Source: Bryobacteraceae bacterium (GTDB lineage Bacteria; Acidobacteriota; Terriglobia; Bryobacterales; Bryobacteraceae). From it: a DNA stretch of 64,000 bases. The notes beneath the pieces were generated by a model. That model did no database searches and was not told the origin of the DNA. It was given only the letters and a program-made list of their open reading frames with translations. The translations under genes and the position numbers were made by a program. The first letter of the stretch is position 1. Each line of letters begins with the position of its first letter. The stretch lies in contig CBDDIZ010000011.1 of NCBI GenBank assembly GCA_965229305.1, positions 236 to 64,235 of the forward strand. Reading direction: 5' to 3'. Positions 13,979 to 64,000 of this stretch are shown one piece after another.

Positions 13979-13979
13979 A

Positions 13980-17327: not shown

Positions 17328-17350
17328 CGGTTGCGTTTCCTCAAGAAAAC

Positions 17351-17385: not shown

Positions 17386-17387
17386 CC

Positions 17388-39286: not shown

Positions 39287-39315
39287 TGCGTTTCGTCTTC
39301 TCCAGCCCTCTTATG

Positions 39316-40086: not shown

Positions 40087-40126
40087 TCGTGCGCAGGAAA
40101 CCTAATTCTAGCAATAGAATAGGAAA

Positions 40127-41922: not shown

Positions 41923-41945
41923 CCCTCCTCAAGCCAGTGATATGA

Positions 41946-44588: not shown

Positions 44589-44643
44589 TGTCGCAGGATT
44601 GTCCGCGCCCCAGCCACGTCACCCGATTCCCACAAAGCGCATA

Positions 44644-45153: not shown

Positions 45154-45156
45154 CCA

Positions 45157-46386: not shown

Positions 46387-46525
46387 ACACCCTACGTCCT
46401 TCTCGGGAATCTCCCCTAAGTCCCTGCTTTTCTTACTCATCTGCCTCGGTTTCCTTAGTCGCTGTCCCCCAAAAGGTGTGCGGCGAGCCTAAAGACTTGA
46501 CCTTAGCGAACCGATGAGGTGCTAA

Positions 46526-48271: not shown

Positions 48272-48307
48272 CCGGGCCGGCGATTCAGAAAGAGAGATTA
48301 AAACAAG

Positions 48308-48973
48308 ATGGCCAAAATTCGAATTCTGTTGGCGGACGACCATACCCTGTTCCGTCAAGGTATTAAAACTCTCATCAATGCCGAAGCGGACATGGAGGTC
48401 GTTGGCGAAGCCGCCAACGGAGGAGACGCTGTCGATAAGGCCGGCGAAGTACGCCCGGACCTCGTCCTGATGGACATCGGCATGCCCGGCCTGTCCAGCT
48501 TCGAGGCGACGCGCCAGATCAAAAAGAATCGGCCCGAAACCAAGGTTTTGCTGCTCACCATGTACGACGACGAGGATTATCTCGTCGAAGGCATGGAAGT
48601 GGGCGCCAGCGGCTACGTCCTCAAGGACAGCCCCACCCAACAACTGGTCGCGGCCATCCGCGACATCTGCCGTGGCGGCAGCTACCTCAGCCCGCGCATG
48701 CTCTCGCAGTTGGTTGACGACTTCCGCACCCGCATCAAGAGCGCGAACCGCCTGCCCCGCTTCGCCACGCTCACCACGCGCGAACGCGAAGTGCTCAAGC
48801 TGCTCGCTGAAGGCAATTCGGTGAAGGAAATCGCCTGCGACCTGAACCTGAGCGTCAAGACCGTTGAAGCTCACAAGTTCAACCTGATGCGCAAGCTCGA
48901 TATCCACAACAAGGCGCAACTGGTGCAGTACGCCATCCAGAAGAAGATCATCAAGATCCCCAACCTCGTCTAG
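48308..48973 (+). CDS. NarL/LuxR-family response regulator
   Basis: Receiver domain (ILLADDH, DLVLMDIGMPG). LuxR HTH (LTTREREVLKLLAEGNSVKEIACDLNLSVKTVEAHKFNLMRKL). Confidence 0.9.
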   Translation: MAKIRILLADDHTLFRQGIKTLINAEADMEVVGEAANGGDAVDKAGEVRPDLVLMDIGMPGLSSFEATRQIKKNRPETKVLLLTMYDDEDYLVEGMEVGASGYVLKDSPTQQLVAAIRDICRGGSYLSPRMLSQLVDDFRTRIKSANRLPRFATLTTREREVLKLLAEGNSVKEIACDLNLSVKTVEAHKFNLMRKLDIHNKAQLVQYAIQKKIIKIPNLV

Positions 48974-49049
48974 TTTTTTGTCCGCTGGTAGCTGGAGTGT
49001 CTCACGAAGGGGCCCGAAATGGGCCCTTTCGGCGTTACAATCAGGCCAG

Positions 49050-49946
49050 ATGACTCCCCTTTCGCGCCGTTCTCTGCTCGCTTCCGCCTTGGCCGCTCCG
49101 GCCGCCCTCTCCGCCGCTCCCCGCCTGCCCATCAAAAAGGCCGTGCTGCTCTCGATGCTGCCGGCGGACCTGAGCTTCAACGAGCGTTTCCAACTCGCCG
49201 CCGACTGCGGCTTCGAACAGGTAGAGGCGTACACCGTGGCCGACGAGAAGACAGCCGAGGAGATTAAGAAGGCCTCCGACCTCGCGAAGGTGCCGATTCA
49301 CTCGGTCATGAATTCGGACCATTGGAAGTTCCCCCTCTCCTCGCCCGACCCCGAAGTCGTCGCCAAGTGCCGCACCGGCATGGAAACCAGCATCCGCAAT
49401 GCGAAGCTCTGGGGCGCCGAGACCGTGCTCCTGGTGCCTGCGGTGGTGGATGCCAAGACCAGCTACGCCGATGCCTGGAAGCGTTCGCAGGCCGAGATCC
49501 GCAAGATGATCCCGCTGGCCAAGGAGTCGAAGGTCATCATCGCCGTGGAAGAGGTCTGGAACAAGTTCCTCACCAGCCCGCTCGAGTTCGCGCGTTACGT
49601 CGACGAGTTCAAGAGCCCTTGGGTCCGCGCTTACTTCGACGTCGGCAACGTGGTGCTGTTCGGCTTCCCGCAGGACTGGATCCGGACGCTCGGCCCGCGC
49701 ATCGTCAAGCTGCACATCAAGGACTTCCGCTTCAAGGCCACGCCGACTTCCGGCGGCAAGAACGTCGCCGACTTCTGCGACCTGCGCGAAGGCCAGATCG
49801 ATTGGCCCGAGATCTACAAAGCCCTCGCCGAGATTGGCTACAAGGGAAGCGCCACTGTCGAGTTGGGCCGCGGCGATAAGGCCAAGCTCACCGAGATCAG
49901 CCGGCGCTTTGACCTGATCCTGACGGGTGCTCCGCTCGGCTCGTAA
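49050..49946 (+). CDS. Sugar phosphate isomerase/epimerase (xylose-isomerase-like TIM barrel) with Tat-like signal
   Basis: SRRSLLASALAAPAALSA. TIM-barrel motifs IAVEEVWNKF, YFDVGNV, HIKDF. Confidence 0.8.
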   Translation: MTPLSRRSLLASALAAPAALSAAPRLPIKKAVLLSMLPADLSFNERFQLAADCGFEQVEAYTVADEKTAEEIKKASDLAKVPIHSVMNSDHWKFPLSSPDPEVVAKCRTGMETSIRNAKLWGAETVLLVPAVVDAKTSYADAWKRSQAEIRKMIPLAKESKVIIAVEEVWNKFLTSPLEFARYVDEFKSPWVRAYFDVGNVVLFGFPQDWIRTLGPRIVKLHIKDFRFKATPTSGGKNVADFCDLREGQIDWPEIYKALAEIGYKGSATVELGRGDKAKLTEISRRFDLILTGAPLGS

Positions 49947-50110
49947 ACTCGCGCGTCAAGGCAGCCCGTCACCTTAGCGACGGCGAAGCTCGGCGTCGGC
50001 CGCCTCGCCCAGTACAAAGCAACGGCCTGCCAGCACACCCGAGACATACGGATGCCGCGGGTTCTCCCCGCCATGGGTAGCCGCTACATGGACTGGCGAT
50101 CAGGCACGCG
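49897..50110 (-). pseudogene. Decayed, internally deleted copy of the qhpE (small subtilisin) gene
   Basis: Matches 51528-~51622 and then ~52035-52153 of the intact gene, so about 410 bp are missing. Residual translation contains FAVAKVTGCLDAR versus FAVANVTGCLAREL. The start codon is lost. Confidence 0.6.
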
Positions 50111-50474
50111 GTTAAGCGTTTCCCCACGGTCGGGCGCTACGCCGCGTTTGGATAAAGGGCGCACTGGTGGCATGTAGTCGGATCGCTGGCCGCACGCAAA
50201 GCAGTCCGTTGGCCGGGAAATCTCAACGGCAATCCGCCATCAAGGCAAGCGGCTTCGCGAACTCGGCGTAGCTGTTCGAAGTACTGCAAGATGCGCTTGA
50301 CTCCTTTGGCGTCGCCACGCCGGAGCCCAAAAGGAAAAGACCCCGGCGCAAGAGAGCTTCTCGGACTGAAGGCTTCCTCGGCCGCAACTGACTTTCGGTT
50401 TTAAAAGATCCTGCGAGCGGGCTGGACAGACTGGCGTCGGAACTGCCGCTCACGCGCGCGAACGAACGAGGCGA

Positions 50475-51230
50475 ACAACAGGGCGGCCAGGGCCGCGCGA
50501 AGGTCCGGAAGAACGCTTGGGTTCCCCCGAGAACCTGAGAGGCGAGTTCGTTTGTTTTGAGCGAGATCGCCGGGTTTGTTTTCTAACTTTTATTCTTCGG
50601 GCGGGTGGTTTTTGAGGTTGCGGGCGAAGTGGGTGAGGTGACGCGGCGTGTCGAGGCTGACGGGGTGGGGGGGCGCCAGCCACGATGTGAGGCGACGATG
50701 TCGTCGACGAGTTCGCAGATCTGTTCGAAGGAGGCCGGGTTGTCTCCTTCGAGGACGGCGTTGATGGCGTCGTTGATCAGGGGCCAGAGATGCTCCTGGG
50801 TGGGGGAGTCAGTGGGATGGCTTTTGACGAGGACCACACGGTGGTCCGGGTGGTTGGCCTGGAGCTCTTCTTCGTACGCGCGGCGGCGTGCTTCGCGCCG
50901 CTTTTCGAGTTCGGCGTCAGTTAGAAGGACCCAGTGGCGTCCGGAACTGAAGTCCGGGACGGGCAGCGAATCGTAGTCGAAGTCAGTGTAACGAGTCATG
51001 ACGGAGTTCTCCGAGGGTGAGAGTAACAGGTCACTTCGGATCTCCGGCCCGGCCGTGGGGCTCCGGTCCTTTGCCTTCAGGGAGTTACGAGAAACGAATT
51101 CTTCGTGACCGGGGAATGGCGGCGCGTCGGAGGGTGAGCGACTTCGATCCCGCGGGAGCGTTTTTGCGGGCACCGGTTAAGGGGGAGAGGGGAGAAGGTG
51201 GCGGCGGCGTGGGAACGGGCGCGGTCGGGG
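50475..51230 (-). repeat. Repeat R, copy 1 (~0.75 kb; intact ORF)
   Basis: Aligns by eye along its length with 60516-61237 in the same orientation. Includes the ORF, ~100 bp of 3' non-coding sequence and ~230 bp of 5' region. Confidence 0.85.
50583..50999 (-). CDS. Hypothetical protein of repeat R (138 aa), family not recognised
   Basis: ATG at 50999 is preceded by GGAGAACTCCGTC. Sequence MTRYTDFDYDSLPVPDFSSGRHWVLLTDAELEKRREARRRAYEEELQ... A second, frameshifted copy lies at 60625-61040. Confidence 0.5.
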   Translation of the reverse strand: MTRYTDFDYDSLPVPDFSSGRHWVLLTDAELEKRREARRRAYEEELQANHPDHRVVLVKSHPTDSPTQEHLWPLINDAINAVLEGDNPASFEQICELVDDIVASHRGWRPPTPSASTRRVTSPTSPATSKTTRPKNKS

Positions 51231-51381
51231 TCTGTGTGGAACTGGCCGCCGTGGGTTTGTTGCGGAGTCAGTTCCGTAGGAACTAGTTGCATGGGTTCTT
51301 CTATCTTCCACGTGATGCAGCGTGTAGCCCTTTGGCGTGTCGGATAGTCCTACTGCTTGGTTAGCCAGCGCCGAATCCTTT

Positions 51382-51577
51382 GGCGGCAAGAACGTCGCCG
51401 ACTTCTGCGACCTGCGCGAAGGTCAGATCGATTGGCCCTGAGATCTACAAAGCCCTCGCCGAGATTGGCTACAAGGGAAGCGCCACTGTCGAACTGGGCC
51501 GCGGCGATAAGGCCAAGCTCACCGAGATCAGCCGGCGCTTTGACCTGATCCTGACTGGCGCTCCGCTCGGCTCGTAA
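51382..51577 (+). pseudogene. Duplicated 3' fragment of the sugar phosphate isomerase gene
   Basis: Near-identical to 49752-49946. I counted about six differences, including a 1-nt insertion at 51439 that creates an in-frame TGA. There is no 5' part of the gene. Confidence 0.8.
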
Positions 51578-52145
51578 GCTCGCGCGCCAGGCAGCCCGTC
51601 ACATTGGCGACAGCGAAACTCACCCCATGCAGGTTTGCCTTCGGCGGCCGCCCCGGAATGGGGCGCGGCCAGCCGCAGGCTTCGTAATTCGGCCCGTAGC
51701 GGTCGCGCGGAATGCGGTCGTCCCAACGCACCGCGATCACTCCCGGCAGCGACCCGGGCAGCGTCTCCGCCGCAGCTATCAGGCGAATGCCTAGTTCCGC
51801 CGCGCGCCGCACCCGTTCGGCGAAGCGCTCGCGATGAGCCTCGTTCGGCGTCCCTAACGACAGGTTGATCAAGTCCACCGGCTGCGCCAGCGCCCAATCG
51901 AGCGCCTCGAGCAGAACGTCGATCGAGGTCACCAACTGCTGATGGAAGATCTTGGCGATGTAGAGCTCGGCGTCGGGCGCCTTCTCGCAAATGGCTCCCG
52001 CCACGGCCGTCCCGTGGCCCAGATAGTCCAGGTAGAAGTCGTCCGCCTCGCCAGGCACAAAGCAACGGCCCGCCACCACCCCCGCGATATGGGGATGCCG
52101 CGGGTTCACCCCGCTATCGATCACCGCTACACGGACTGGCGGCAA
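51528..52145 (-). CDS. qhpE: Small subtilisin-like serine protease, QhpE-type (leader peptidase of the gamma subunit)
   Basis: 205 aa. Triad contexts VAVIDSGVN, LGHGTAVAG, HGVSFAVANVTG. Last gene of the qhp operon. Confidence 0.7.
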   Translation of the reverse strand: MPPVRVAVIDSGVNPRHPHIAGVVAGRCFVPGEADDFYLDYLGHGTAVAGAICEKAPDAELYIAKIFHQQLVTSIDVLLEALDWALAQPVDLINLSLGTPNEAHRERFAERVRRAAELGIRLIAAAETLPGSLPGVIAVRWDDRIPRDRYGPNYEACGWPRPIPGRPPKANLHGVSFAVANVTGCLARELTSRAERQSGSGQSAG

Positions 52146-53752
52146 TGCACGCGCCCTTCCCGCAACTCCAGCACCTCGCCCATAGCCTGCTCCGGCTGAT
52201 GCGTAATCAGCAACGTGGTGCGGCCCTGCGCCGCCCGCTTCAGCGTCCCCATCACGTCGGCCGCCGTCGCGGCATCCAGGGCGGCCGTGGGTTCATCCAG
52301 CAGCAACACCAGGGGTGCGCGCAGCAACGCCCGCGCCACCGCCACGCGTTGCCGTTCGCCGGCGGAAAGCGCCGTGCCCCGTTCGCCGGCCATCTGGTCC
52401 AGCGGCAAGCTCAAGGCCGCCTCGCGCGCCGCCCGCTCAATCTCCGCGACGGCCGCCTGCGGGCGCGCGTAAGCGATGTTATCGGCCATGGTCGTGTTGA
52501 ACAGAATCGGTGTTTGCTCCACGATGGCGATCTGGTCTCGCAGCACGGCGAGCGGCCATTCCCGCAAGGGCCTTCCGTCGAGCAGAATCTCGCCCGAGGT
52601 AGGGTCGTAGAGCCGGGCCAGCAGATCCACGAGAGTCGACTTGCCGGCCCCGCTCGCCCCCAGCAGCGTGTACGCTTGGCCGGCCTTCAGGCGAAAGCTG
52701 GCCCCCGTCAAGACGCCTTCGAACTGCACCTCGCGGAACTCGATCTCTCCTCTGAGAGGCGCCGCCGCGCCGCCGGGGTCGCGCACCTCGACGGGCAGAT
52801 CGAAGACCTCAAACACCCGCCGCAGCGACACCGCGCCGGTGACCAGGCCGCCATAGAGCGACATCAGGCTTTGCACCGGCCCCAGCAGACGGCCATGGTA
52901 GGCGAGGAAGGCGATCAACGCCCCCAGCGTCATCGTGCCGTCCAGCACCTGCTGGCCGCCGAGCAGAAACACGGCCGCCGTCGAGAGCGTAACGGCCGTG
53001 GTGGGGATGGCGCCGGCCACGAAGTTCGTCCGCTGCATCCGCAGCAAGGCCTCGACGAAGCCATGGTTCGCTGCCCGGAAGCGTTCGGCTTCGCGCTCCT
53101 GCGCGTTGCTCAGTACGGTGAGCCGCAAGCCGGTGAGCGACTCGATCAGGAAGCTGCCGATCGACGCACTGCGCTCCCGCAGCACGCGCACCTGGCTCGC
53201 GAGCCGATGCTGCATCCGGCGCACCAACCATAACGTCAGCGGCAACACGGCCACGCTCACCGCGAACAGCAACGGACTGAGCCGTAGCATCAGCACCGCC
53301 GCTCCGGAGAGGAACAGGACGTTGGCTAGCAGAGCGAGCAACGTATCGGCGGTGACGCGCTGCACTTCGGCGATGTCGTTGCTCAAGCGCGAGACAAAGT
53401 CACCGAGCCGCGCGTGCGCATGACGCCGCGGCGACAGCGCCTGCAGATGGCGATACATGTCGAGCCGCATAGCGAAGAGCACGGCTGCCGACACGCGCAC
53501 GTAAGCGTAGCTGGAGGCGACGTTCAGCACAAACCCCACGACGGTGAGCAAGGCCATCAACCCGGCGGCCTGCCACAGGGTTGGCATGTCGCGCGCGAGT
53601 AAGCCTTCATCCACCAGGCGCTGATTCAGCAGCGGCACCAGCAGACCCGCGGCCGTAGAGAACAGGCTGAGGAGGATGATGCCCGCCAGCGCCGCGCGAT
53701 GCGGCGTCAGATACGGCAGCACGCGCCGGTACTCGCTAAGCTTGGCTTCCAT
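52127..53752 (-). CDS. qhpF: ABC exporter, fused permease/ATPase (QhpF-type)
   Basis: Six N-terminal TM helices. Walker A GASGAGKST, signature LSAGERQR, Walker B LLLDEPTAALD. Confidence 0.8.
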   Translation of the reverse strand: MEAKLSEYRRVLPYLTPHRAALAGIILLSLFSTAAGLLVPLLNQRLVDEGLLARDMPTLWQAAGLMALLTVVGFVLNVASSYAYVRVSAAVLFAMRLDMYRHLQALSPRRHAHARLGDFVSRLSNDIAEVQRVTADTLLALLANVLFLSGAAVLMLRLSPLLFAVSVAVLPLTLWLVRRMQHRLASQVRVLRERSASIGSFLIESLTGLRLTVLSNAQEREAERFRAANHGFVEALLRMQRTNFVAGAIPTTAVTLSTAAVFLLGGQQVLDGTMTLGALIAFLAYHGRLLGPVQSLMSLYGGLVTGAVSLRRVFEVFDLPVEVRDPGGAAAPLRGEIEFREVQFEGVLTGASFRLKAGQAYTLLGASGAGKSTLVDLLARLYDPTSGEILLDGRPLREWPLAVLRDQIAIVEQTPILFNTTMADNIAYARPQAAVAEIERAAREAALSLPLDQMAGERGTALSAGERQRVAVARALLRAPLVLLLDEPTAALDAATAADVMGTLKRAAQGRTTLLITHQPEQAMGEVLELREGRVHCRQSV

Positions 53753-53755
53753 TCT

Positions 53756-54760
53756 TCAGACCTTGTAGTAGCACATGTAGCCGGAGTGGCAGTGCGCCGG
53801 CGACTCCCGCAGCGCGATCGCGCGCTCAATCACCGTTGGCTTCGGCACCCCAGCCCGCACGCGTTTCACGATATCGGCCACCATCTTGACGCTTGCGAAC
53901 TTCTTGAGGGGCGCGGCTTCGCGGCCCACGATCTTCAGCGACTCTACACCCATCCGCGCCAGGTCCGGAATGGCACACAGGCCGCACGGGCCATAGGGCA
54001 GTCCCTTGGCCGTTGAGCCGCAGCCATTGCCGTTCAGATACCAAACCCACTCGCGATAGTCCTCGAGGTTGCGGCGCAACCAAGCCCGGCGCCGCGTCGA
54101 GAAGTAGCCGCCGTGCCATTCGAACTCCGTCTTCATCTCCGACAGGCTGGTGCAGAAGGCGCCCACCGAATGGTGATGCGTGGTCGCGCAGAAGCCTTCT
54201 TCAAAGGCGCACCCGTCGTTCAGCATGAAGACCTCGATCTCGCACTGGCCACGCGTGGCGGCGGTGAGGTTGCCGATCTCCGCCAAGGTCACCGAGCGTG
54301 GCAGGATGACGCGGGTGGGCCCGAAGTTCAACAGGAAGCGAATCGCCTCGACATTCAAAGCGGCGGCGACGGAACTGACGTGCGCGCCGGCGTGCAACCG
54401 CAACTCGCTTAGGCGCAGCAGCAGGTTGACGTCGGTGACGATGAAGGCGTCGACGCCGCAGTCTTCGCTGAGCCGGGTGGCGAGTTCGACGACTAATTCG
54501 GTTTGCTCGGCCGTGTAATAGGGCGCGTTGAAGGTGACGAACAAGGGCAGGCCGCGCGCATGAGCGGCATCGGCGAGCGCGCGCAGATCGGCGAAGGTTT
54601 CGAGCGAACTGCCCTTCGTGGAGCGGCGGTTCAGCCACACCGCGCCCTGGTAACGTTCGAGCCATTCTCGCGGGACGAAGCCGCAGAAGAGCTCCTCAGC
54701 GCCGGCGGCGTGGAGCATCTCGAGTTCGTCGAGCTCGCGAATGGGGGCCAGGATCTTCAT
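53756..54760 (-). CDS. Peptidase-U32-family protein (UbiU/UbiV/RlhA/TrhP superfamily)
   Basis: MKILAPIRELDELEMLHAAGAEELFCG, GVDAFIVTDVNLL, RVILPRSVTLAEI. EIEVFMLNDGCAFEEGFC resembles the U32 signature E-x-F-x-H-G-[SA]-[LM]-C-x4-G-x-C. Further Cys residues in FCTSL and GPCGLC. Confidence 0.8.
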   Translation of the reverse strand: MKILAPIRELDELEMLHAAGAEELFCGFVPREWLERYQGAVWLNRRSTKGSSLETFADLRALADAAHARGLPLFVTFNAPYYTAEQTELVVELATRLSEDCGVDAFIVTDVNLLLRLSELRLHAGAHVSSVAAALNVEAIRFLLNFGPTRVILPRSVTLAEIGNLTAATRGQCEIEVFMLNDGCAFEEGFCATTHHHSVGAFCTSLSEMKTEFEWHGGYFSTRRRAWLRRNLEDYREWVWYLNGNGCGSTAKGLPYGPCGLCAIPDLARMGVESLKIVGREAAPLKKFASVKMVADIVKRVRAGVPKPTVIERAIALRESPAHCHSGYMCYYKV

Positions 54761-55653
54761 GCGGCTGCCTTCGCTTCCGCTAGCAGCGGGACGCGCGGCT
54801 GGATGTTCAGGCGCCGCACTTGCCCTTGCCGCGCGGCCGTTAGGAGGGACGCCACCAGGGCCGGCGTGTGCGTGTAGAAGTAGGTGTTGCCTTTGAGCCA
54901 GAAGCGCTGGTCGCGGTTCTCAAAGGGCGAGTTGGTATAGCTGTGTTCGAGCAAAAACGTCTGACACTCGTGGCGGCAAGGGGCAGCGGGCTGGAACTTG
55001 TCGGCTTTGGTATAGCCGAGCCCGGCCGCCTGGCAGACGCGGGCCGTGGAGATGAAGCCATAGGGCAGGTACGCGGCCAAGTCGATGCCGGCGCCGAAGT
55101 CGTTACCTTGGGGCAGTCCGTCGATCTCGGCCAGCCGCACATCGAAGCGGCGCAGCATGGCCAGATAGGCGCGATTGTCGAGGTTCGAACCTTGCAGGAC
55201 ACGCAGGGTGGGGCTGGCGGGTGCCTCGGCGTAAAGGCTCATCACGCGCGGGTCGCGCAGGCTCTTGTGGAGCAGGCGGCCTTGTACGGGGACCAGTGCC
55301 GGATAGTCGCGGCGCAGCACATTCAGCACGCCCCAGTCGTTGAAGACGACTTCGTCGCCGGGGCGCAAGCTGGCGAACAGAGGGAGCAGTTTGGCGAGGC
55401 CGCGGTCGCTCACGTAGGGCGTCAGCAGCGTGAAAGGCTTGGGGCAGGCGGCGCGTACGTTCGCGAGGCTCCCGGGGATGAGGTGCTCGCAGAACTCGGT
55501 GCCGTAGAGGTAGCGGTCCACGGGCAGATCGCCCACTTGCGCGGCGACCCCTGTGAGCCACGGCCGCAGCTTCTCGCTGGTTTCCCACCGGAAGGCTTCG
55601 CCGAGAGTGGCGATGCACTCAGCCGAGTCGCGGATGTGGAGCGCGACTTCCAT
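54757..55653 (-). CDS. Divergent U32-like protein (possible partner subunit), otherwise hypothetical
   Basis: 4-nt overlap with the downstream U32 gene. EVVFNDWGVLNVLRRDYPALVPVQGRLL resembles the U32 ...D.A.L.....P... segment. Cys residues in YGFISTARVCQAAG and APCRHEC. The call rests on weak by-eye similarity. Confidence 0.4.
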   Translation of the reverse strand: MEVALHIRDSAECIATLGEAFRWETSEKLRPWLTGVAAQVGDLPVDRYLYGTEFCEHLIPGSLANVRAACPKPFTLLTPYVSDRGLAKLLPLFASLRPGDEVVFNDWGVLNVLRRDYPALVPVQGRLLHKSLRDPRVMSLYAEAPASPTLRVLQGSNLDNRAYLAMLRRFDVRLAEIDGLPQGNDFGAGIDLAAYLPYGFISTARVCQAAGLGYTKADKFQPAAPCRHECQTFLLEHSYTNSPFENRDQRFWLKGNTYFYTHTPALVASLLTAARQGQVRRLNIQPRVPLLAEAKAAA

Positions 55654-55660
55654 GCCTGGT

Positions 55661-56725
55661 TTAGTTCAGCACCGGGACGAGCGAGGTGGTCATGTCGGCG
55701 GCGACATCGATGTCCTTCACCAGTTGCAGAGTCTGGGCATCGTACAGCTCGATCGTGTTGCCGGCGCCGTAGATGATGATGTGCTTGCCATCGGAGGTGA
55801 GGCCGAGGCTGAACCGCGTGCGGCCGGCAAAGGTGGCGCGCTTGACGATTCTGGGACCCGTCATGTCGATGATGACGAACTCGCAGTGGCGGTCGCCGTG
55901 TTCGCCGCTGATGGTGACGGTGTAGCCGGTTTTGCGGTCGGGCGAGAGGCGCAGGCCGGTCATGCCCTGGACGGCGGGCCCGATGGGAGTGAAGTCGATC
56001 TTGCGGGTGCTGAGGTTCAGATGCGCGATGCCCCACATGCGTTTGTGGACGATGGGGTCCGTGCTGTTGAAGATGGCGGTCATCATGCCCGGGGCGTCAT
56101 GCGGGTCGTCGGCGGGCGAAAGAAAGATGGACTCCATGCCGGGGAAGGCTGGGCGCGAGAGCTCGATGGTCTCCACGAGTTTGAAGTCGGCCGTATCGAA
56201 GATGTAGATGTTGTCGCGGAAGACCCACAGGTACTTGCCGTCGGGTGAGACTTTGAACTGCCCTCGGCCGCCGAAGGCGGAGGCTTCTTTGGGGATGTCG
56301 GCGGTACGGACGATCTTCTTCTCCTTGAGGTCAACGACGGCGAACTTGGGCTTATCGACTTCGAAACGGTCGATTTTCTTCTCGGCGATGGTGACGGAGA
56401 GATAGAGGAAGCGATCGGTGGGATCGAGCCCGCCGCCGCCGATGCGGACTTTTTTGTTGGCGGTGCCGAGGGTGAAGGAGTCGATCACTTTGCGGGAGGC
56501 GAGGTCGATGGTTTCGACGCCCGAGTCCCGGGTGGTGACGGCGATGAGCTTTTTGCGGTCCTGCGAGAGGTAGAGTGTCCGCGCGACGTCGGTCTGCAGC
56601 TTGATGCGGTCGACGACGGCGACACGGGCTTCGTCGATCACCAGCAGGTCGCGCGGCCAGCCGCCGACGTACAGGTAGGTGGGGTCGGCGGCGAAGGCAA
56701 GTAAGTAGGTGAGGGTCGTCAACAT
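55661..56725 (-). CDS. qhpB: Quinohemoprotein amine dehydrogenase beta subunit (7-bladed beta-propeller), QhpB-type
   Basis: 354 aa with signal peptide MLTTLTYLLAFAA. All-beta repeat character. Located immediately after the gamma-subunit gene, as in known qhp operons. Confidence 0.65.
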   Translation of the reverse strand: MLTTLTYLLAFAADPTYLYVGGWPRDLLVIDEARVAVVDRIKLQTDVARTLYLSQDRKKLIAVTTRDSGVETIDLASRKVIDSFTLGTANKKVRIGGGGLDPTDRFLYLSVTIAEKKIDRFEVDKPKFAVVDLKEKKIVRTADIPKEASAFGGRGQFKVSPDGKYLWVFRDNIYIFDTADFKLVETIELSRPAFPGMESIFLSPADDPHDAPGMMTAIFNSTDPIVHKRMWGIAHLNLSTRKIDFTPIGPAVQGMTGLRLSPDRKTGYTVTISGEHGDRHCEFVIIDMTGPRIVKRATFAGRTRFSLGLTSDGKHIIIYGAGNTIELYDAQTLQLVKDIDVAADMTTSLVPVLN

Positions 56726-56731
56726 GGTGGT

Positions 56732-57079
56732 TTATGGGAAGACGAGGTCGATGTTGCGCCAGTCTTTGGTGGCGCTGGCGCACTTGGTGGCCCAGTCCGG
56801 GTAGTTGTTGTAATGGTCGGGCACTTGGGCGGGCCAGAAGCAGGTGACGTAGCAGTCGTAAAGGTCGCGTTCGGCGGGCTGGCAGAGACCGGCGGTGCCG
56901 CCGGCGGAATCGACTTCCCAACCGGGCGAAAAGACAATGGAGCAGCCGACGGGATAGTGCGGCCGCGGGGCGGGCGGCCCGTTGCCGCCTTGTTGCAGCG
57001 CGTAGATATCGCCCTGCGAGGCCGCGACGTACTGTTCGATGCGCCGGGCTTTTTTATTGATCGCTTTCAGGTGCTTCAT
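56732..57079 (-). CDS. qhpC: Quinohemoprotein amine dehydrogenase gamma subunit precursor (CTQ- and thioether-crosslinked peptide), 115 aa
   Basis: MKHLKAINKK...GCSIVFSPGWE..GLCQPAERDLYDCYVTCFWPAQVPD. The C-x8-E, C-x5-D and C-x3-C-x-W-x5-D spacing equals the Cys7-Glu16, Cys27-Asp33, Cys37/Trp43 (CTQ) and Cys41-Asp49 pattern recalled for Paracoccus QhpC. Sits between the radical SAM and beta-subunit genes. Confidence 0.8.
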   Translation of the reverse strand: MKHLKAINKKARRIEQYVAASQGDIYALQQGGNGPPAPRPHYPVGCSIVFSPGWEVDSAGGTAGLCQPAERDLYDCYVTCFWPAQVPDHYNNYPDWATKCASATKDWRNIDLVFP

Positions 57080-57089
57080 GCGCGGTGCT

Positions 57090-58613
57090 CTATTGCAGAG
57101 GCTTCCTTTGTTCGAAGTGGTCGAGAAACGAGGGGTTCTGGACGGCGATGTCGCCGTAGATCTGGAGACAAACGTCGGTCCAGCCGCGAATCCAATCGCA
57201 GAAGTGCAGGTTCGGATGGCCGGTGTCGCCGTAGCGGACGAAGGCTTCGTGGTGGCAACCGCCGGCGCACAGCGGCCGGGCGAAGCAGGAGTGGCAATCG
57301 AACTTGGCGGAGATATGGCCGCGGTCGAGAAAGGCTTGCTGCTTTTCGCGATCGAGTCCGCCGGCGAGGACGTTGCCGAGGGCATGCGAGTCCGAGTCGA
57401 CGAAGCGATGGCAGGGAGCGATGTCGCCAGAAGGGCCGACGCCGACGAGGCCTAAGCCGGCTCCGCAAGGGTGCGACTTATTGATGCCCGCGTGGAGTTC
57501 GGCCAGCGTATCGGAGACGTTCGAGAAGCCATGCTGGCGGCCGGCGAGAGCCCAATCGCGGTATTCGGCGGCGAGCTCTTTGAACTGCTCGAAGATCCGG
57601 TCCAGGTGATTCGCTTCGATGGTGTAGAGTCGCTTGGGCGCCGCGGTGACCGGGGCGAAGCCGACCTCGGCGAAGCCGAACTCCTCGCGTAGATGATGGA
57701 AGATCTCTTTGACGTTGGTCACCTGCCGGGTGAGCGTGACGCGCGCGGCGATGGGACGTGTGGAGTGCTGAGCGATGAGCGCTTTCACCTTGGGGGCGAG
57801 CACGTCGTAGCTGCCTTTGCCGTTGGCGTAGACGCGCAGGGCGTCGTGCTGCTCCTTGGGGCCATCCATCGAGACGGTGACGCCAATGCGGTGTTCGACG
57901 AGGAAGTCGATGATCTCGGGGGTGAGCAGGGTGCCGTTGGTGGTGAGCGAGAAATCGAGGTATTGGCCGTGTTCGCGGGCTTTCGCGGTGGCGTAGTCGA
58001 CAACCCATTTCAGGAGCGGGAAGTTCATCAGCGTTTCGCCGCCGAAGAAGGTGAGGTGGACGGCGCGCCGGCCCTGGGCGGAGGCGAAGAGGTGATCGAC
58101 CGAAGCTTGCGCGACTTCGGTGCTCATGAACTTGGGTTTGCCGGAAGGCGTGGCCACCTTGTCCTCGCCGAACTCGTAGCAATATTGGCAGGAGAGGTTG
58201 CACTGGTTGGTGAGGTTCAGCACCAACGACTGCAAGGGGAAATTGGCGACGGGCTCCTGCGGCGGATCCTGGTGGCCTTGCGGGTCGCGGATGGCCCGGG
58301 CGGCGAGCAGATCGGTGACCGCCTCTTCGGCGTCGAGCGGAGTGAGTCCTTCGGCGACCAGGGCCGTCAGGAGTTCGCCAATGCGGCGCGGCTGGTCGCG
58401 GAGGAGGCGCAGGGCGCGGCCGGCGGCGGGAGAGACCGCGAAGATGCCGCCGCTGGGGACGAGGTAGAGAAACTGCGTGCCTTGGGTGGTGAACTCGTGA
58501 AACTCAGCCAGGCTGAGAGGCGCTAACGGGGCGGCCGAGGGGATACCGGTCATTCGCTCACTGGTCATTGGTCCATCGGTCAGGGGGCTGTCGGTCATGG
58601 GGCTGTCGGTCAC
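57090..58613 (-). CDS. qhpD: Radical SAM/SPASM peptide maturase, QhpD-type
   Basis: CNLSCQYCYE radical-SAM cluster motif. C-terminal SPASM Cys clusters (CGAG..C, CHSCFARPLCAGGCHHE). GTG start overlaps the qhpA stop (GTGA). Confidence 0.9.
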   Translation of the reverse strand: MTDSPMTDSPLTDGPMTSERMTGIPSAAPLAPLSLAEFHEFTTQGTQFLYLVPSGGIFAVSPAAGRALRLLRDQPRRIGELLTALVAEGLTPLDAEEAVTDLLAARAIRDPQGHQDPPQEPVANFPLQSLVLNLTNQCNLSCQYCYEFGEDKVATPSGKPKFMSTEVAQASVDHLFASAQGRRAVHLTFFGGETLMNFPLLKWVVDYATAKAREHGQYLDFSLTTNGTLLTPEIIDFLVEHRIGVTVSMDGPKEQHDALRVYANGKGSYDVLAPKVKALIAQHSTRPIAARVTLTRQVTNVKEIFHHLREEFGFAEVGFAPVTAAPKRLYTIEANHLDRIFEQFKELAAEYRDWALAGRQHGFSNVSDTLAELHAGINKSHPCGAGLGLVGVGPSGDIAPCHRFVDSDSHALGNVLAGGLDREKQQAFLDRGHISAKFDCHSCFARPLCAGGCHHEAFVRYGDTGHPNLHFCDWIRGWTDVCLQIYGDIAVQNPSFLDHFEQRKPLQ

Positions 58614-60412
58614 TGGGCGACCTCGGGCTGATCCCAGCGCATGTACATGGGGACGGCGACGACCAGATAGGTCTTGGCGGTGAGGGGCGTGGTAGCGCCA
58701 GGCGGCGTAAAGGTGGCGACCACCCAGACATCGCCGTAGTTGTTGGCGTTGAACTTGCGCTTCTCGTTGGGGCCTTCGAGGTTCGGGGTGAACAGGCCAT
58801 CAGCGCTGAGCGAGCCGACGAACTCCTTGTCATCATCGCCATAGTGGGAGGCGAACTCCTCGAGCGACCACTTCGCTTTCACCGGACCGAGCGGGACGTC
58901 GTCGGCCGTGTGGGGCTTCCCATCGAGGCCGTTGGACCAGGCGGTCGCTTCGAACTGGTAGAAGCCTTTGGGGTGCGTGTTGCCGCCGAGGCGGGCGAGG
59001 GCGCTGCCGGGCGTTTTGAGGTAGTCGATTTTCTGGTAGACGGCGAGGGCGCCGGGCAGCCCGGTGCGGCGAACGAAGATGTCGCGTTTCCCGGTGACGG
59101 CTTGCGCGGCGACGTCGACCTTGAGGGTGAGGCCGGTGGGCGATTGCGCGGTGATGGCGGTGACGGTGAGGCCGGTACCGAGGTCGAGGTCGGCGGGGGT
59201 GAGGCCGGTGGGCAGGCCATCGCCTAGGAGGCGCAGGGTGGCGCCTTTGGCGCCGGCGGGAAGCGCCTCAAGGTCAGTGGTGAGCAGAAGAGGACCGTCA
59301 CCGGCACGGCGGAGGGTGACGTCATAGCCGAACTCGTTATATCCGCCCCAGAACCAGCGCCCTTCGGCGGATTGCTGATCGCGGGAGAAGGTCATCACTT
59401 CCCGTTCTTCTTCGTGGGAGTTCGCGGTGGAGCGGCCGCGCCAGGCATAGCCGGTATAGACCACCGCTTTACCGGTGCGGGTGACCTTTTCGCCGGTTTG
59501 GAGCGAGGTGAGCGTGGTGCGAGCGGTGAACTCGTCGGGGCCGGCGTTCTCGATGATCATTTCGCCGACGAATTTGCCTTGGCCGGGGAGGACGGCGGTG
59601 ACGGCCCACCGGCCGGCCAGTTTGGGGGCGCGGCGGGTCGCCTGCCACTGAGCCCATTCGGGAGTGTGCAACGGGTTCGATTTGGCGAAGTGTTCGAGGG
59701 CGAGCTCGAAGGGCTCTTTGGCGGGAGGCGCTGGATTGGACGCCGGAGCCGGGGGACTGCCGCGGCCGGGCGGGCGGCGGAAGGAGGTGAACTCGACGAC
59801 CGGGAAGTAGCCGCGGTGCATGGCGCCCAGCAGGTCCCACTCTTCTTTGGTGCGTCGCCAGGAGTTGGGCTGGGCGAGCGGGTGGCAGGCGGCGCAGGAG
59901 TCGCGCAAGGTGTCCGAAGGGAGGACTTCGCTTTCCGGCTGGCGCTTCTCCCAATACCAGGCGACGGGCTTAGCTTCTTCGGGGGCGAGGCCATGGGTTT
60001 CGCTGAGGGCTTTGACGATTTCGCGCGCTTCGGCGGGGCTGAGAGCGAGGCCATTCAAGCGGACCATGCGTTTGATGATCTGCTGCCAGCCTTCGGGCGT
60101 GGTGCGTTCAAAAGCGAGCCGGGTGAGGTGGCCCTGGCCGTCGTCGCGATGGCAGCCGCCGCATTTGGCTTTGACGGTGGCGTTGGTGACGGGGATGCCG
60201 GGCTCGGGTCTTGCGCCAGGGGTGGCGGGCGGAGCAGTTTGAGCGAGCAGGAGGGAGCCGGCAGCGAACAGGAGGACAGCGGCGCGGGTCAGCAGCAAGA
60301 TGGGCTCCCTTCGAATGGACTTTTCGACAGTACGGACGGGGACAACACGACGCAAGGCTGCAGGGTTGCGACGAGGTCGGCGGAGACCTTGAGTTTTTGA
60401 TCGTAGTCGCAT
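58610..60412 (-). CDS. qhpA: Quinohemoprotein amine dehydrogenase alpha subunit (di-haem cytochrome c domain + beta domains), QhpA-type
   Basis: CGGCH and CAACH. RTTPEGWQQIIKRMVRLNGLALSPAEAREIVKAL is typical of the QhpA haem domain. Signal/anchor LLTRAAVLLFAAGSLLLAQT. The true start may lie downstream of 60412. Confidence 0.8.
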   Translation of the reverse strand: MRLRSKTQGLRRPRRNPAALRRVVPVRTVEKSIRREPILLLTRAAVLLFAAGSLLLAQTAPPATPGARPEPGIPVTNATVKAKCGGCHRDDGQGHLTRLAFERTTPEGWQQIIKRMVRLNGLALSPAEAREIVKALSETHGLAPEEAKPVAWYWEKRQPESEVLPSDTLRDSCAACHPLAQPNSWRRTKEEWDLLGAMHRGYFPVVEFTSFRRPPGRGSPPAPASNPAPPAKEPFELALEHFAKSNPLHTPEWAQWQATRRAPKLAGRWAVTAVLPGQGKFVGEMIIENAGPDEFTARTTLTSLQTGEKVTRTGKAVVYTGYAWRGRSTANSHEEEREVMTFSRDQQSAEGRWFWGGYNEFGYDVTLRRAGDGPLLLTTDLEALPAGAKGATLRLLGDGLPTGLTPADLDLGTGLTVTAITAQSPTGLTLKVDVAAQAVTGKRDIFVRRTGLPGALAVYQKIDYLKTPGSALARLGGNTHPKGFYQFEATAWSNGLDGKPHTADDVPLGPVKAKWSLEEFASHYGDDDKEFVGSLSADGLFTPNLEGPNEKRKFNANNYGDVWVVATFTPPGATTPLTAKTYLVVAVPMYMRWDQPEVAQ

Positions 60413-60515
60413 TCGCGAGGCGAGTCAAATGAGGGAGGTCGGCGCGACGGGGCGGCTGGTGGGCGCCCGAGGTCAGCGCGACGGCAGACCTCGGGCGATG
60501 AGGCGTTTCGGTTAT

Positions 60516-61237
60516 CAAACAGCAGGGCGGCCGAGGCCGCGATGGTCCGGAAAAACGCTTGGGTTCCCGCGGGAACCTGAGAGGCGAGTTCGTTTGTTTT
60601 GAGCGAGATCGCCGGGTTTGTTTTCTAACTTTTATTTTTTGGCTGGTGGTTTTTGAGGTTGCGGGCGAGGTGGGTGAGGTGACGCGGCGTGTCCAGACGG
60701 ACAGGGCGGGGGTTGCGCCAGCCACGATGTGAGGCGACGATGTCGTCGACAAGTTCGCAGATCTGTTCGAAGGCGGCCGGGTGGTCTTCTTCGAGAACGG
60801 CGTTGATGGCGTCGTTGATCAGGGGCCACAGATGCTCCTGGGTGGGCGAGTAAGTGGGATGGCTTTTGACGAGGACCACACGGTGGTCGGGTGGTTGGCC
60901 TGGAGCTCTTCTTCGTACGCGCGGCGGCGTGCTTCGCGCCGCTTTTCCAGTTCGGCGTCAGGTAGAAGGACCCAATGGCGTCCGGAACTGAAGTCCGGGA
61001 CGGGAAGCGAGTCGTAGTCGAAGTCAGTATAACGAGTCATGACGGAGTTCTCCGAGGGTGAGAGTAACAGGTCACTTACGATCTGCGGGCCGGCGGAGTG
61101 GATCAGATCTTTTGTCTTCAGGAAGTTACGAGAAACGAATTCTTCGTGAACGGGAACTGGCGGCGGGGCGGAACGTGAGGGGGCGCCGATGGAGGCGGAG
61201 AAGGTGGCGCGGCTTGGCAACGGGTGAGGTCGGTGAG
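60516..61237 (-). repeat. Repeat R, copy 2 (frameshifted ORF)
   Basis: Aligns with 50475-51230 and is roughly nine-tenths identical by eye in the ORF part. Contains the perfect 16-bp palindrome GGTTCCCGCGGGAACC at 60562-60577. Confidence 0.85.
60625..61040 (-). pseudogene. Frameshifted copy of the repeat-R ORF
   Basis: A 1-nt deletion near 60888 (GGTGGTCGGG versus GGTGGTCCGGG in copy 1) splits the reading frame into track ORFs 60819-61220 and 60625-60879. Confidence 0.75.
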
Positions 61238-61335
61238 CTGAGTTTGCGGTTAGGCTCTGGACGCGTCGCCGGGTGGATGCGGCGATGGCGGGCTAAGGTT
61301 GCGGTCGGTACCCTCGCTTGCGTCGGTGGTCCCGC

Positions 61336-61366
61336 ATTCTCTTTCCTGGTGCCGGACATGACCTAC
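61336..61366. repeat. Imperfect direct repeat, left copy
   Basis: ATTCTCTTTCCTGGTGCCGGACATGACCTAC matches 63346-63376 at 25 of 31 positions. The core TTCCTGGTGCCG is identical. Confidence 0.6.
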
Positions 61367-61520
61367 ATGTCTATGACAATGAGACCGTCGATGGCGGCGT
61401 GAACAAGGTGAACGACTACATCAAGATCGATGTTGCTGAAGCAACTCCGATGCTTGGAATGCTTCCTGTGTAGCATTTCGTTTGCATACCCGGTGCGCTT
61501 GATCGAAAAGCTTGGCCCGT

Positions 61521-61916
61521 TCAAACCTCCGTTCCCCACCCGTCATAAACAGCCTCACACTGAGCCGCTAGCCGCACCATTCCTTCGGTAAAGTCATCTC
61601 CGAGAATTTGGTCCGGCACGATAAGCGCTCCTGCTTCGATCCCCCATCGGTCTTCATCCTCTGGAGCCGGGGAAGGAGACAGCAGCTTAACGAGGAAGCC
61701 TTTCTTGAACAACTCCCGAGCCAGAACCGAAGCATCTCGCTGACTCCACGCCCAGAAGTGAATATCCGCAGGACACTGTTCACTCAAGTTCACTCCCTTA
61801 CCGACGAGTACTTGCCTCAAGTCAGCATTCCGTTTGCGGTGTTTCGCCAACGACTCGTGGACGTGGTCAGCCATTGGGTCCACAACTTCAATTCTGATTG
61901 AGCGGTCCGTATTCAT
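61521..61916 (-). CDS. RraB-like (regulator of ribonuclease activity B / DUF1260) domain protein
   Basis: ..ADIHFWAWSQRDASVLARELFKKGFLV..WGIEAGALIVPD..MVRLAAQCEAVYDGWGTEV. The C-terminal YDGWGT is characteristic. Start uncertain (61916 or 61874). The long N-terminus in the track looks non-coding. Confidence 0.6.
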   Translation of the reverse strand: MNTDRSIRIEVVDPMADHVHESLAKHRKRNADLRQVLVGKGVNLSEQCPADIHFWAWSQRDASVLARELFKKGFLVKLLSPSPAPEDEDRWGIEAGALIVPDQILGDDFTEGMVRLAAQCEAVYDGWGTEV

Positions 61917-62323
61917 CTTCAATGCGTTTCTGGCGTTTCGGGCCAATCGGGTTTCGCTAGTTTGTAGTCTGCGAGCCTGGCTTGTTCGCCGTGCCACCAA
62001 GTTCGTTGATTCTTGTCTGCTCGGCGACTTCACGAGCGTGGGATGGAAGCCGTATCTGGCGGATGGCAGTCGTGTATGGCGCCGCGCGGAGAGGCCAACA
62101 CCGCACGGAGAAGCCAAATGAAACATCGATTCCCATTCTGAAACTGACTCCTCTTCCGCGCAGCGAAACATGACCTCCCTTAACTCATTGATCCGCCGTC
62201 GTGGAATGCGGCGGGCGTGAGTAACTTGGGCGCCTACCGCGCGACTTACCGCCCTCATCAACTCTACGCCGTCAGCTAGGGGGCAATCGGGGCTCCACTC
62301 GATCAAAACCAGGGTCTATCGCC

Positions 62324-62600
62324 ATGACTTGGCTGCTCCTCGCTCCGTTCGCGGGGCAGCATGATGCCACCAGTTCTCTGCTTACCCATCGGGCCGGTCC
62401 CGTCAGTTGGGCACCTCGCTATGACGCCCAGTTTCTCGATGGCGCATCCTTCAACCCCTTTCTCCGCTACGTCGAACTGAACCCCGTTCGCGCCGGACTC
62501 ACCCATCGGGCGATCGAGTGGCCCTGGTCGAGCGCCAAGGTCCATGGCGCCGGCGTGGACCCCGATCCATCGCTCTCCGGCGACCGTTGGCCGCCCGTAT
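62324..62600 (+). pseudogene. C-terminal fragment of an IS200/RAYT-like (Y1) transposase
   Basis: FNPFLRYVELNPVRAGLTHRAIEWPWSSAKVH matches the conserved C-terminal Y..NPV.AGLV....WSS block. The catalytic N-terminal part is absent. Confidence 0.5.
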
Positions 62601-62743
62601 TCCGGCGGCAGGAGACCGTGGCGGTCGACAGGCATCGATCTCTTGATCAGCAGATCGAAGCCGAGCGCGCGAATCGTAATGGCTTCGCCGCTCTGCCGCC
62701 TTTCGCCTGTCGGATTCCCTCGCCGCCTTCTCGATCAGCCGGA

Positions 62744-63100
62744 TCATTTCTGCTTCCGAAAAGCAATTCCGAAGTCTGGGTCGACTGACAAGTCAATTCC
62801 TAACGGCGTTCGCGACGCATCCATGCTGCACATGTCAATGCGCTTGCCGAACCCATCTCTTGCGACGGACAAACATGGTCTGAGCAGCACATGCCCGCTC
62901 GAATAGTTCCAAGAGCCTTCAATCCGCTCGGTTGCAATCGTCTGAGAGAAATTCCCGTCTGGACCCAAGACAAGAGCGGATCTCCCTGCGTCAGACTCAA
63001 GCTGGTACCGACCGGAGAGCTCTCTGGAACTACTTGGGGTACACGCCACCGAAACAAGCAGCAAAACAATGAGAAGGACGAGAGCTGGTTCATATCGCAT
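62744..63100 (-). CDS. Small putative lipoprotein (118 aa)
   Basis: ATG at 63100 is preceded by GAGGAGAAC. Signal peptide with lipobox-like LLVSVAC. Confidence 0.45.
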   Translation of the reverse strand: MRYEPALVLLIVLLLVSVACTPSSSRELSGRYQLESDAGRSALVLGPDGNFSQTIATERIEGSWNYSSGHVLLRPCLSVARDGFGKRIDMCSMDASRTPLGIDLSVDPDFGIAFRKQK

Positions 63101-63345
63101 GAGTTCTCCTCTGTCCATGCAAAAGTCTGGAGGACATTGTTCGTCGGCCGGTCGGGCGCCCTGGATTGTCCCAAGCATTGGCTCTCTGACCAATCCACGG
63201 TCCCCACGTAGCCTGACCGACGAACGAGGAAACCCAACGCAAATTGGCGCGTACTGGATTTTACCGCCAGAGGGATAGCTCTCCGCGGTCAAACAAGCCA
63301 CCCGGGTTGTATTCGTAGTGGTGGGGTCGGCGATCCCCGCATCGG

Positions 63346-63376
63346 CCTCTCCTTCCTGGTGCCGAACATGGCCCAC
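63346..63376. repeat. Imperfect direct repeat, right copy
   Basis: CCTCTCCTTCCTGGTGCCGAACATGGCCCAC lies 2010 bp from the left copy. Weaker similarity extends ~15 bp further left (TCCCGCAT / TCCCCGCAT). Confidence 0.6.
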
Positions 63377-63392
63377 CCCTCGGCGGGATCTC

Positions 63393-63653
63393 TCACGCGC
63401 CCCGTTTTCGCAGCCGACTCGCCCATAAGAGCAGTGCCATGATCGCTAGAACCAATGACTCGTTCAATGCGATCTCCCAGCTTTTGGGAATCGCTAAGGG
63501 ATTGGGGTTCGTGTAGGACGGCGTCACGTGATAGAGCCATGCAATGACCTCTCTCATCCCGCCACGTAGCGCTAGCCTCGCCACGTAGGCTCCGCGCAAG
63601 GCTTGGAACACACCGAGTGCGAGAAACAGCGACCAAGCCACGGTACCGATCAC
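63393..63653 (-). CDS. Small hypothetical membrane protein
   Basis: GTG at 63653 gives VIGTVAWSLFLALGVFQAL and a second helix LVLAIMALLLWA. Begins 20 nt after the upstream HEXXH ORF stop. Start uncertain. Confidence 0.3.
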   Translation of the reverse strand: MIGTVAWSLFLALGVFQALRGAYVARLALRGGMREVIAWLYHVTPSYTNPNPLAIPKSWEIALNESLVLAIMALLLWASRLRKRGA

Positions 63654-63672
63654 CGAGCGGACTCTCGAAGCG

Positions 63673-64000
63673 CTATCTGGGGGCAAAGCGCCTCGCTCCC
63701 CTGTTGAACATGCCGCGGTTGGTCGGGAATCCTGGAGTCGGAATGGGGCGCGGCCCAAACTGCGACATTCGAATCGCATCCGTTTGAATGTCGGCCGCTG
63801 TGTTCGAGCCAAAGCCAACAATCTGAGAGAACCCGGGGCCGAGATCCGCTATCGGCCTCGTCGTATCACTCGCAAGACGGTGGCCGATCTCATGCGGTGG
63901 CGTGCCGCGGTGAAAATTGTTGAAATTCAGGAGGGTCATTGCAACTCCGGCGGAGATTCCGATTTTCCGCTGGCGGCCGAGCTTCCAATCTGGTTCGAGT
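63673..64000 (-). CDS. C-terminal part of a HEXXH-motif protein (putative zinc metallopeptidase domain); 5' end outside window
   Basis: The reading frame stays open from the ATG at 63939 up to the window edge (..LEPDWKLGRQRKIGISAGVAMTLLNFNNFHRGTPPHEIGH..). There is a single HEIGH motif and the family was not recognised. Confidence 0.35.
   Translation of the reverse strand, partial: LEPDWKLGRQRKIGISAGVAMTLLNFNNFHRGTPPHEIGHRLASDTTRPIADLGPGFSQIVGFGSNTAADIQTDAIRMSQFGPRPIPTPGFPTNRGMFNRGARRFAPR

Follow-up and report, generated by a model that had tools for sequence, protein, structure and literature searches.

In bacterial segmental duplications, direct repeats (for example copies of insertion sequences (IS), of repetitive extragenic palindromic (REP) sequences or of rrn operons) recombine in a RecA-dependent manner, and the DNA lying between them is deleted or amplified. 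REP-associated tyrosine transposases (RAYTs) are typically single-copy, and IS110-family insertion sequences use sequence-specific targets, as is the case for IS621 in REP sequences. Here we describe a locus which recalls each of these systems in part, namely two direct repeats, R1 and R2, standing on either side of a qhp operon in a 64,000-nt stretch of a Bryobacteraceae genome (the window, by which we mean the whole stretch analysed). The qhp genes form an amine-dehydrogenase operon and the repeats around it are real; the observation of the pair, made in an earlier note on this DNA, was correct, and its explanation is an ordinary one. Sequence comparison indicates that the repeats most likely record past amplification and decay, and do not carry the operon. 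Specifically, we give somewhat better than even chances to R1 and R2 being the scar of an old duplication of a segment running from the 3' end of the neighbouring gene X through qhp to R, which was mostly deleted afterwards and was later subject to gene conversion.

Geometry of the repeat pair

The two copies were found by repeat search, MAFFT and BLASTN, which reported a single direct-repeat pair, in a 7.16-Mb metagenome-type assembly of 42 contigs and 91% completeness (G000). R1 (50474-51138) and R2 (60518-61179) align in direct orientation over 666 columns, with 610 identities (91.6%), 5 gap columns and a BLAST E-value of 0.0, far beyond chance; the longest identical runs measure 64, 60, 48 and 36 nt. 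Their spacing, about 10,042 bp, agrees with the 10 kb first estimated. The earlier note had described direct repeats of about 0.75 kb which align over their whole length (50475-51230 with 60516-61237). The pair is indeed real and direct, and the alignment holds up to 51138/61179, but past these positions each copy carries a member of a dispersed element, E, and no mutual alignment of the two members (E1 and E2) was obtained; the solid repeat is therefore only about 0.67 kb long. As had been claimed, the operon is the sole intact content of the interval, which otherwise holds E1, 127 nt of unique DNA and a 3' fragment of X next to the eight qhp genes. A search of Rfam over 49500-62500 at E <= 1 gave no match.

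Both repeats contain a small minus-strand gene, R, of about 130-138 aa with conserved flanks. The R1 open reading frame (ORF) of 138 aa is open, as previously noticed, but cannot be called intact without reserve, as compensating 1-nt indels at 50599 and 50671 shift its last ~24 codons off the family consensus frame. In R2 one C is absent between 60887 and 60888, exactly where a frameshift had been placed. R1 and R2 thus appear, from their sequences, as two decaying members of a family. Counting its copies by BLASTN and tblastn, as had been proposed, returned about 19 loci in this genome, with 24 profile matches, so that R is a dispersed multicopy family, an outcome which the earlier note had itself named as refuting its reading. 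Specifically, the A-type subfamily comprises four near-full copies (R1, R2, C35:273040-273675 and C31:89941-90457, given as contig and positions) and fragments on contigs C39, C16 and C1, while the B-type subfamily has 12 copies in the same genome, which share 56% amino acid identity with R1 and 98-100% among themselves.

Origin of the pair

From left to right the locus reads X-A, qhpE', 33 nt, IS110 stump, R1, E1, 127 nt, A', operon, R2 and E2 (Table 1), where qhpE' is a pseudogene remnant of qhpE, A is a segment formed by the ends of X and of this remnant, and A' is its duplicate. The succession X-A, qhpE', R1, E1, A', qhpE to qhpA, R2, E2 matches the prediction of a tandem duplication of A-qhp-R-E whose left copy later lost qhpF to qhpA. 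A and A' give a 241-nt alignment at 94.6% identity, and a three-way alignment was made with G005, a sister species of the same genus. The qhpE' remnant is 81% identical to qhpE (52038-52153); its start codon has become a stop, the catalytic Asp motif VIDSG reads ATHGG, and its mismatches are spread over the codon positions as 7/7/7, which points to neutral decay. X and qhpE are convergent, and ancestrally their 3' ends shared an overlap of about 39 nt (window 51528-51567; G005:C117 ~10650-10690), the last ~13 codons of qhpE being read antisense to the end of X.

The sister species lacks the left-hand part of this arrangement. On its contig C117, positions 1-10729 correspond to window 39261-49991 (93% identity), 10475-17663 to 51363-58554 (91%) and 17650-20202 to 58601-61185 (87%). 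There X abuts qhpE, nothing matches window 49992-51362, and both the R1 patch and the A' duplicate are missing; a single 255-nt stretch matches A (49737-49991) as well as A' (51363-51621). The R1 patch, of about 1.4-1.6 kb and followed by the duplicated X 3' end, is thus found in this genome only. In contrast, G005 has an R2 orthologue (C117 19558-20202) upstream of qhpA, which is also broken. Being common to the two species, R2 looks like an old resident upstream of qhpA, and on this comparison it is ancestral at its site. Synteny between the genomes stops at 61185, six bases past the end of R1/R2 homology, and resumes about 6.5 kb further on, outside the window. Among other congeners, the HK-RR-X synteny (genes for a histidine kinase, a response regulator and X) is kept in G007 and G001, as in G005, with other DNA following X in the former two; in G001 the qhp operon occupies another place, and both R and X are missing from its surroundings. 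A pair of repeats around the operon is thus peculiar to the present genome, and R has no general link to qhp.

Locus-specific sequence past the family unit and collinear duplicates of the flanks, the marks of a local segmental duplication, are both present. The former is a 108-nt extension (51031-51138 in R1) common only to R1, R2 and the R2 orthologue of G005, with no other match in the genome. Since R1 adjoins partial duplicates of qhpE and X and shares this extension with R2, the pair looks like what is left of a past duplication that took in the operon region. The earlier idea that the repeats are connected with duplication or recombination is thus supported in part: the extension and the qhpE/X duplicates speak for a past duplication, and the core appears homogenised, while a composite mobile unit finds no support.

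The relative age of the event can be estimated from the locus-specific parts. In the extension, R1 and R2 show 81.5% identity to each other, against 69-72% to G005. In the N-terminal part of qhpE, the three-way alignment counts 8 sites at which both copies of this genome differ from G005, 4 at which the functional copy alone differs and 19 at which the remnant alone does, the remnant having about 16% changes of its own; for the X 3' end the same counts are 12:1:3. As both locus-specific parts, extension and qhpE', say so, the duplication would postdate the separation from G005, with an age of about two thirds of that split. A different pattern is seen in the tail and ORF common to the family: here R1 and R2 are 93.5-94.2% identical, and each of them is 94-95% identical to the C35 copy, whereas positional orthologues of this core in G005 are 74-90% identical. 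Such a pattern is that expected of concerted evolution, and a core homogenised with other family copies would imply ongoing homologous exchange. For this reason the overall identity of 91.6% provides no date for the repeat, and the locus-specific and family-shared segments together offer a small example of how concerted evolution can mislead the dating of repeats.

All together, these comparisons outline a history whose three components, tandem duplication, IS-associated deletion and gene conversion, we infer from sequence. A segment reaching from the 3' end of X across the qhp operon to R, with E, would have been duplicated in this lineage after the split from G005. The left copy would then have been mostly deleted, from qhpF to qhpA, an event probably linked to insertion of an IS110-family element at the R1 tail, and a further 417 nt would have been lost within the qhpE remnant. 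The family-shared core of R1 and R2 may have been held at about 94% identity through gene conversion with other R copies, and the X fragment kept near-identical to X, also through conversion. What replaces the tempting composite-transposon inference is thus a dated and testable sequence of duplication, IS-associated deletion and gene conversion.

Several observations weigh against this history. The duplicated parts differ in their divergence (extension, 81.5%; qhpE', 81%; R core, 94%; X part of A/A', about 98%), a discrepancy explicable by gene conversion, itself deduced from the same sequences. The main loose end is the X part of A', whose 185 nt contain only 4 substitutions and a single indel relative to A (about 2%), against 18-19% for the other duplicated parts, and which calls for a later conversion or a younger event. 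The R1 tail runs leftwards into IS110-related sequence, while that of R2 stops after 107 nt; because the tails differ in extent, the left flank of R1 is not a simple copy of that of R2. E1 does not align with E2, nor is there a counterpart to the right of R2 for the 127 nt at 51255-51381. In a maximum-likelihood tree of the A-type copies R1 and R2 pair only weakly (76/57), and approximately unbiased (AU) tests reject no alternative placement of either. The X-qhp junction has no outgroup, and the genome is an assembly of 42 contigs.

Some of these points would be better accommodated if R1 had arrived on its own. In this scenario, which we consider unlikely while granting it some credence, illegitimate or ectopic recombination, or template switching, placed a second R relic, together with its IS110 stump and E, between X and qhpE and in doing so duplicated about 0.25-0.8 kb of the target (A and qhpE), and a second operon copy never existed. 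The long tail and IS110 stump of R1 do resemble other long-tailed R copies and an insertion on contig C113 of G005, not R2; the R1 core is equidistant from R2 and the C35 copy, the patch contains unique filler, and A and A' are nearly identical, in line with a younger event. The scenario does not sit well, however, with an extension that only R2 and its G005 orthologue share, with extension and qhpE remnant being alike at about 81% between copies, or with a part order exactly as for tandem duplication. The structure alone would also fit a patch already present in the common ancestor of the two species and lost in G005, as recombination between A and A' yields exactly the clean X-qhpE junction seen there; the ~16% changes of the qhpE remnant are in addition comparable to the neutral divergence between the species. 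We rate this course as improbable, since by the three-way patterns (12:1:3 for X 3', 8:4:19 for the N-terminal part of qhpE) the duplicates coalesce later than the split and the extension of R1 is closer to R2 than to G005, even if gene conversion could mimic part of this post-split signal.

We give next to no credence to the earlier suggestion of a composite mobile unit, in which qhp would have reached this site on a transposon or excisable island with the R copies at its ends. A catabolic operon bracketed by direct repeats, a repeat family linked with transposase genes and the variable position of qhp among congeners might invite such an inference. Nevertheless, R encodes no transposase or other recombinase and belongs to a dispersed family, both copies are damaged, neither repeat holds a transposase gene, and the part common to both does not include the IS110 stump. 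No pairs of inverted repeats of at least 30 nt were found in 48000-64000, shorter ones not having been searched. Nor is the whole unit present or absent as such among relatives: in G005 the operon occupies the same site with R2 only, and in G001 it has no R nearby; target duplications were not searched for, the ends being ill-defined. The candidate was rejected, as it fails on transposase, terminal inverted repeats and whole-unit distribution. It is also very improbable, in our view, that the patch arose when contigs containing repeats were wrongly joined into a chimera. The number of contigs, the 91% completeness and the fact that R, E and IS sequences break congener assemblies would make such a join conceivable, but the duplicated parts are diverged (81-95%) and not identical, and a decayed qhpE remnant with an internal deletion is no assembler product.

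Judging by their length of 0.67 kb and identical tracts of up to 64 nt, homologous recombination between the direct repeats could still delete the operon, which would stand one homologous exchange from loss, which may bear on the patchy occurrence of amine oxidation in the genus.

Table 1. Features of the qhp locus and its flanks, in window coordinates
Feature	Position	Strand	Description
Gene X	48978-49946	+	intact; xylose-isomerase-like TIM-barrel protein (PF01261, E 1.7e-36); left neighbour of the operon locus
Segment A	49752-49991	+	last 195 nt of X and 45 nt of the qhpE remnant 3' end; duplicated as A'
qhpE'	49947-50113	-	pseudogene remnant; C-terminal 45 nt fused to N-terminal ~119 nt, 417-nt internal deletion
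Filler	between qhpE' and IS110 stump		33 nt
IS110 stump	50147-50379	+	frameshifted 3' stump, IS110-family transposase gene; DNA 78-87% identical to the end of the transposase gene in G005
R1 3' tail	50380-50582	-	includes ~80-nt hairpin motif (~50520-50600) overlapping the last codons of R
R1 ORF	50583-50999 (read 50999 to 50583)	-	138 aa, open; last ~24 codons off consensus frame
R1 upstream region	51000-51138	-	51000-51030 family-wide; 51031-51138, 108-nt extension
E1	51154-51254	+	81% identity to C33:230435-230528; transposase gene absent here
Unique filler	51255-51381		127 nt; no match in own genome or G005 loci
Segment A'	51382-51621	+	non-functional X 3' fragment (51382-51567, 1-nt insertion) and true qhpE 3' end
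qhp operon	51528-60412	-	Pfam and NCBIfam matches; collinear with G005:C117 at 87-91%
qhpE	51528-52145	-	
qhpF	52127-53752	-	
U32-family gene	53756-54760	-	
Partner gene	54757-55653	-	
qhpB	55661-56725	-	
qhpC	56732-57073	-	
qhpD	57090-58613	-	
qhpA	58610-60412	-	
R2 3' tail	60518-60624	-	short 107-nt version, with hairpin motif
R2 ORF remnant	60625-61040 (read 61040 to 60625)	-	1-nt deletion between 60887 and 60888
R2 upstream region	61041-61179	-	includes locus-specific extension 61072-61179
E2	61181-61366	+	composite copy of RAYT-downstream element; left edge of ~6.5-kb stretch missing in G005

To the right of R2, the ~6.5 kb from 61186 to C11:~67910 are replaced in G005 by 520 nt. This stretch starts with E2 and contains an RraB-like gene and, at 62324-62788, a fragment of a RAYT gene; past the end of the window it continues with a full RAYT-like gene (C11:65692-66246), after which comes a further copy of E. 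The G001 operon (locus L015, G001:C2:44000-62000) has the order qhpA-D-C-B-F-E, with qhpB directly followed by qhpF, and lacks the pair formed by the U32-family gene and its partner, present in the window and in G005. Among the six ORFs scanned there, about 4 kb on each side, no FAD monooxygenase Pfam domain was detected, and two adjacent ORFs have no Pfam match at all. Metagenome contigs scanned for exact patterns of the R1 left flank and of the X/qhpE junction gave no match in either case.

The R family and the elements accompanying it

With 6-19 profile matches in each of seven congeners, where its copies are often broken, the R family occurs in 8/8 genomes of the genus; the same profile had no match in 150 other sampled genomes of the order. 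In a collection of 5.8 billion database proteins, R is represented by 113 clusters, all unnamed and mostly on contigs shorter than 2 kb, whose named sources are Bryobacteraceae metagenome-assembled genomes. The family therefore appears, on the sequences sampled, confined to this genus and related Bryobacteraceae. Its closest metagenomic homologue (P0002) belongs to a locus on contig C116 of G005, not to an R1-type patch.

Among ten B-type ORFs (e.g., C33:229278-229673), 47 of the 52 variable nucleotide sites fall at the third codon position and five amino acid positions vary; between the C35 and C31 copies the differences by codon position are 6/0/24. This excess of synonymous differences among copies indicates that R is a real protein-coding gene under strong purifying selection. 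Purifying selection across a multicopy gene is also seen in active mobile-element lineages. The ORF had been said to show no recognisable transposase or integrase features, and indeed it has no match in Pfam, NCBIfam, PHROGs or PADLOC. The structure prediction also suggested for the 138-aa protein was run with AlphaFold2 on an 11-row alignment, but gave a poor, mostly helical model (pLDDT 66, pTM 0.29).

Every R copy takes its last codons and stop from a motif of about 80 nt, which extends 3' of them and consists of a GGTTC-loop-GAACC hairpin followed by GTTTGTTTTGAGCGAGATCGCCGGGTTTGTTTTC (window 50520-50600 and 60562-60642). The motif core occurs at 25 genome sites, about five of them solo, and in congeners the motif often stands at contig ends; covariation in the hairpin is almost nil (1/14 pairs). 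On contig C113 of G005 the motif is the right end of an IS110-family insertion of 1.83 kb, defined relative to contig C19 of G000, with a transposase gene of 438 aa. This full copy matches PF01548 and PF02371 and so belongs to the IS110 family, whereas the stump in the window has a DNA-level match to the last ~80 codons only. The R1-type tail recurs, conserved, in the two R subfamilies as well as behind the transposase gene of G005, the longer R tails in general being homologous to the DNA that follows the gene.

A second associated gene, of the RAYT/IS200-like Y1 transposase type, lies upstream of several R copies in divergent orientation. Its product, encoded elsewhere in the genome, matches PF01797 Y1_Tnp with 31.5 bits, above the cut-off of 23, while its score of 64.3 bits for NF047646 REP_Tyr_transpos remains below the cut-off of 80 of this curated RAYT model. 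At least nine full copies are present, with at least 97% amino acid identity. Immediately 3' of this gene lies element E, which exists in more than 25 copies at 86-96% identity; at R1 and R2, E is present and the transposase gene is absent. The hairpin motif was also considered as the REP of the RAYT-like gene, a candidate that was dropped, as the motif accompanies R and not the transposase gene. Elsewhere, a 1,331-bp IS with orfA/orfB-type transposase, presumably IS3-like to judge from its ORF layout, has at least 11 copies at 98-100% (e.g., C33:230895-232225), one of which is inserted directly after an R/RAYT module.

In its fullest context R is followed through a series of genes for a protein of 130-230 aa, a terminase-large-subunit-like protein and the Y1 transposase. 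The terminase-like protein matches PF03237 and PHROG terminase families (E 1e-37); the 130-230-aa protein has an N-terminal "NALKHGL"-type motif and no family match. Modules of this kind were found at C30:70834-75711 in the same genome and on unrelated Bryobacteraceae contigs (L033 and L034), and a third, more divergent paralogue, C-type R, occurs in the same order at C22:15228-18655 and C20:55685-59058. No capsid or portal genes were seen near the modules. In G005 the contigs end at full modules. Since complete R adjoins terminase-like and Y1 genes that are missing at R1 and R2, these two would be stripped relics of a larger module. We propose, tentatively and well short of even confidence, that R marks an undescribed compact multicopy module of Bryobacteraceae, a mobile or selfish element of a novel type, of which the qhp-flanking repeats are stripped relics kept alike by recombination. 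Its parts might be R, the 130-230-aa protein, a terminase-like ATPase/nuclease and the Y1 transposase, bounded by the hairpin motif and E repeats, a composition that we put forward as equally tentative. The more original lead to come from this locus is a small gene which is subject to purifying selection and associated with both a terminase-like gene and a multicopy Y1 transposase gene.

Comparison with known systems

The locus shares with the scars of segmental duplications the direct repeats about 10 kb apart around a dispensable operon, the partial duplicates of flanking genes at the junction, the identical tracts of up to 64 nt, which suit homologous exchange, and the signs of gene conversion among copies. 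It departs from segmental duplication and amplification systems in that R1 and R2 are 8% diverged and both damaged, and in that one operon copy would already be gone. With composite IS-flanked catabolic transposons it has in common a repeated element in the same orientation on both sides of a catabolic operon; unlike these, R has neither transposase nor terminal inverted repeats, and the sister species has one copy at the same site.

As for the accompanying elements, the companion Y1 transposase of complete R, the hairpin-bearing short repeats and the tandem repeats nearby recall the REP/RAYT systems of the IS200/IS605 superfamily. However, the companion gene scores below the NF047646 cut-off and has at least nine full copies, the 80-nt hairpin motif travels with R and not with the transposase gene, and R1 and R2 retain no such gene. 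Finally, as in target-specific IS110 elements, a DEDD-type transposase gene (PF01548 and PF02371 in the G005 copy) is fixed in orientation against the hairpin-bearing tail of R; in contrast to a full IS110 element, the window holds a 3' stump only, and the tail may be either the end of the IS or its preferred target.

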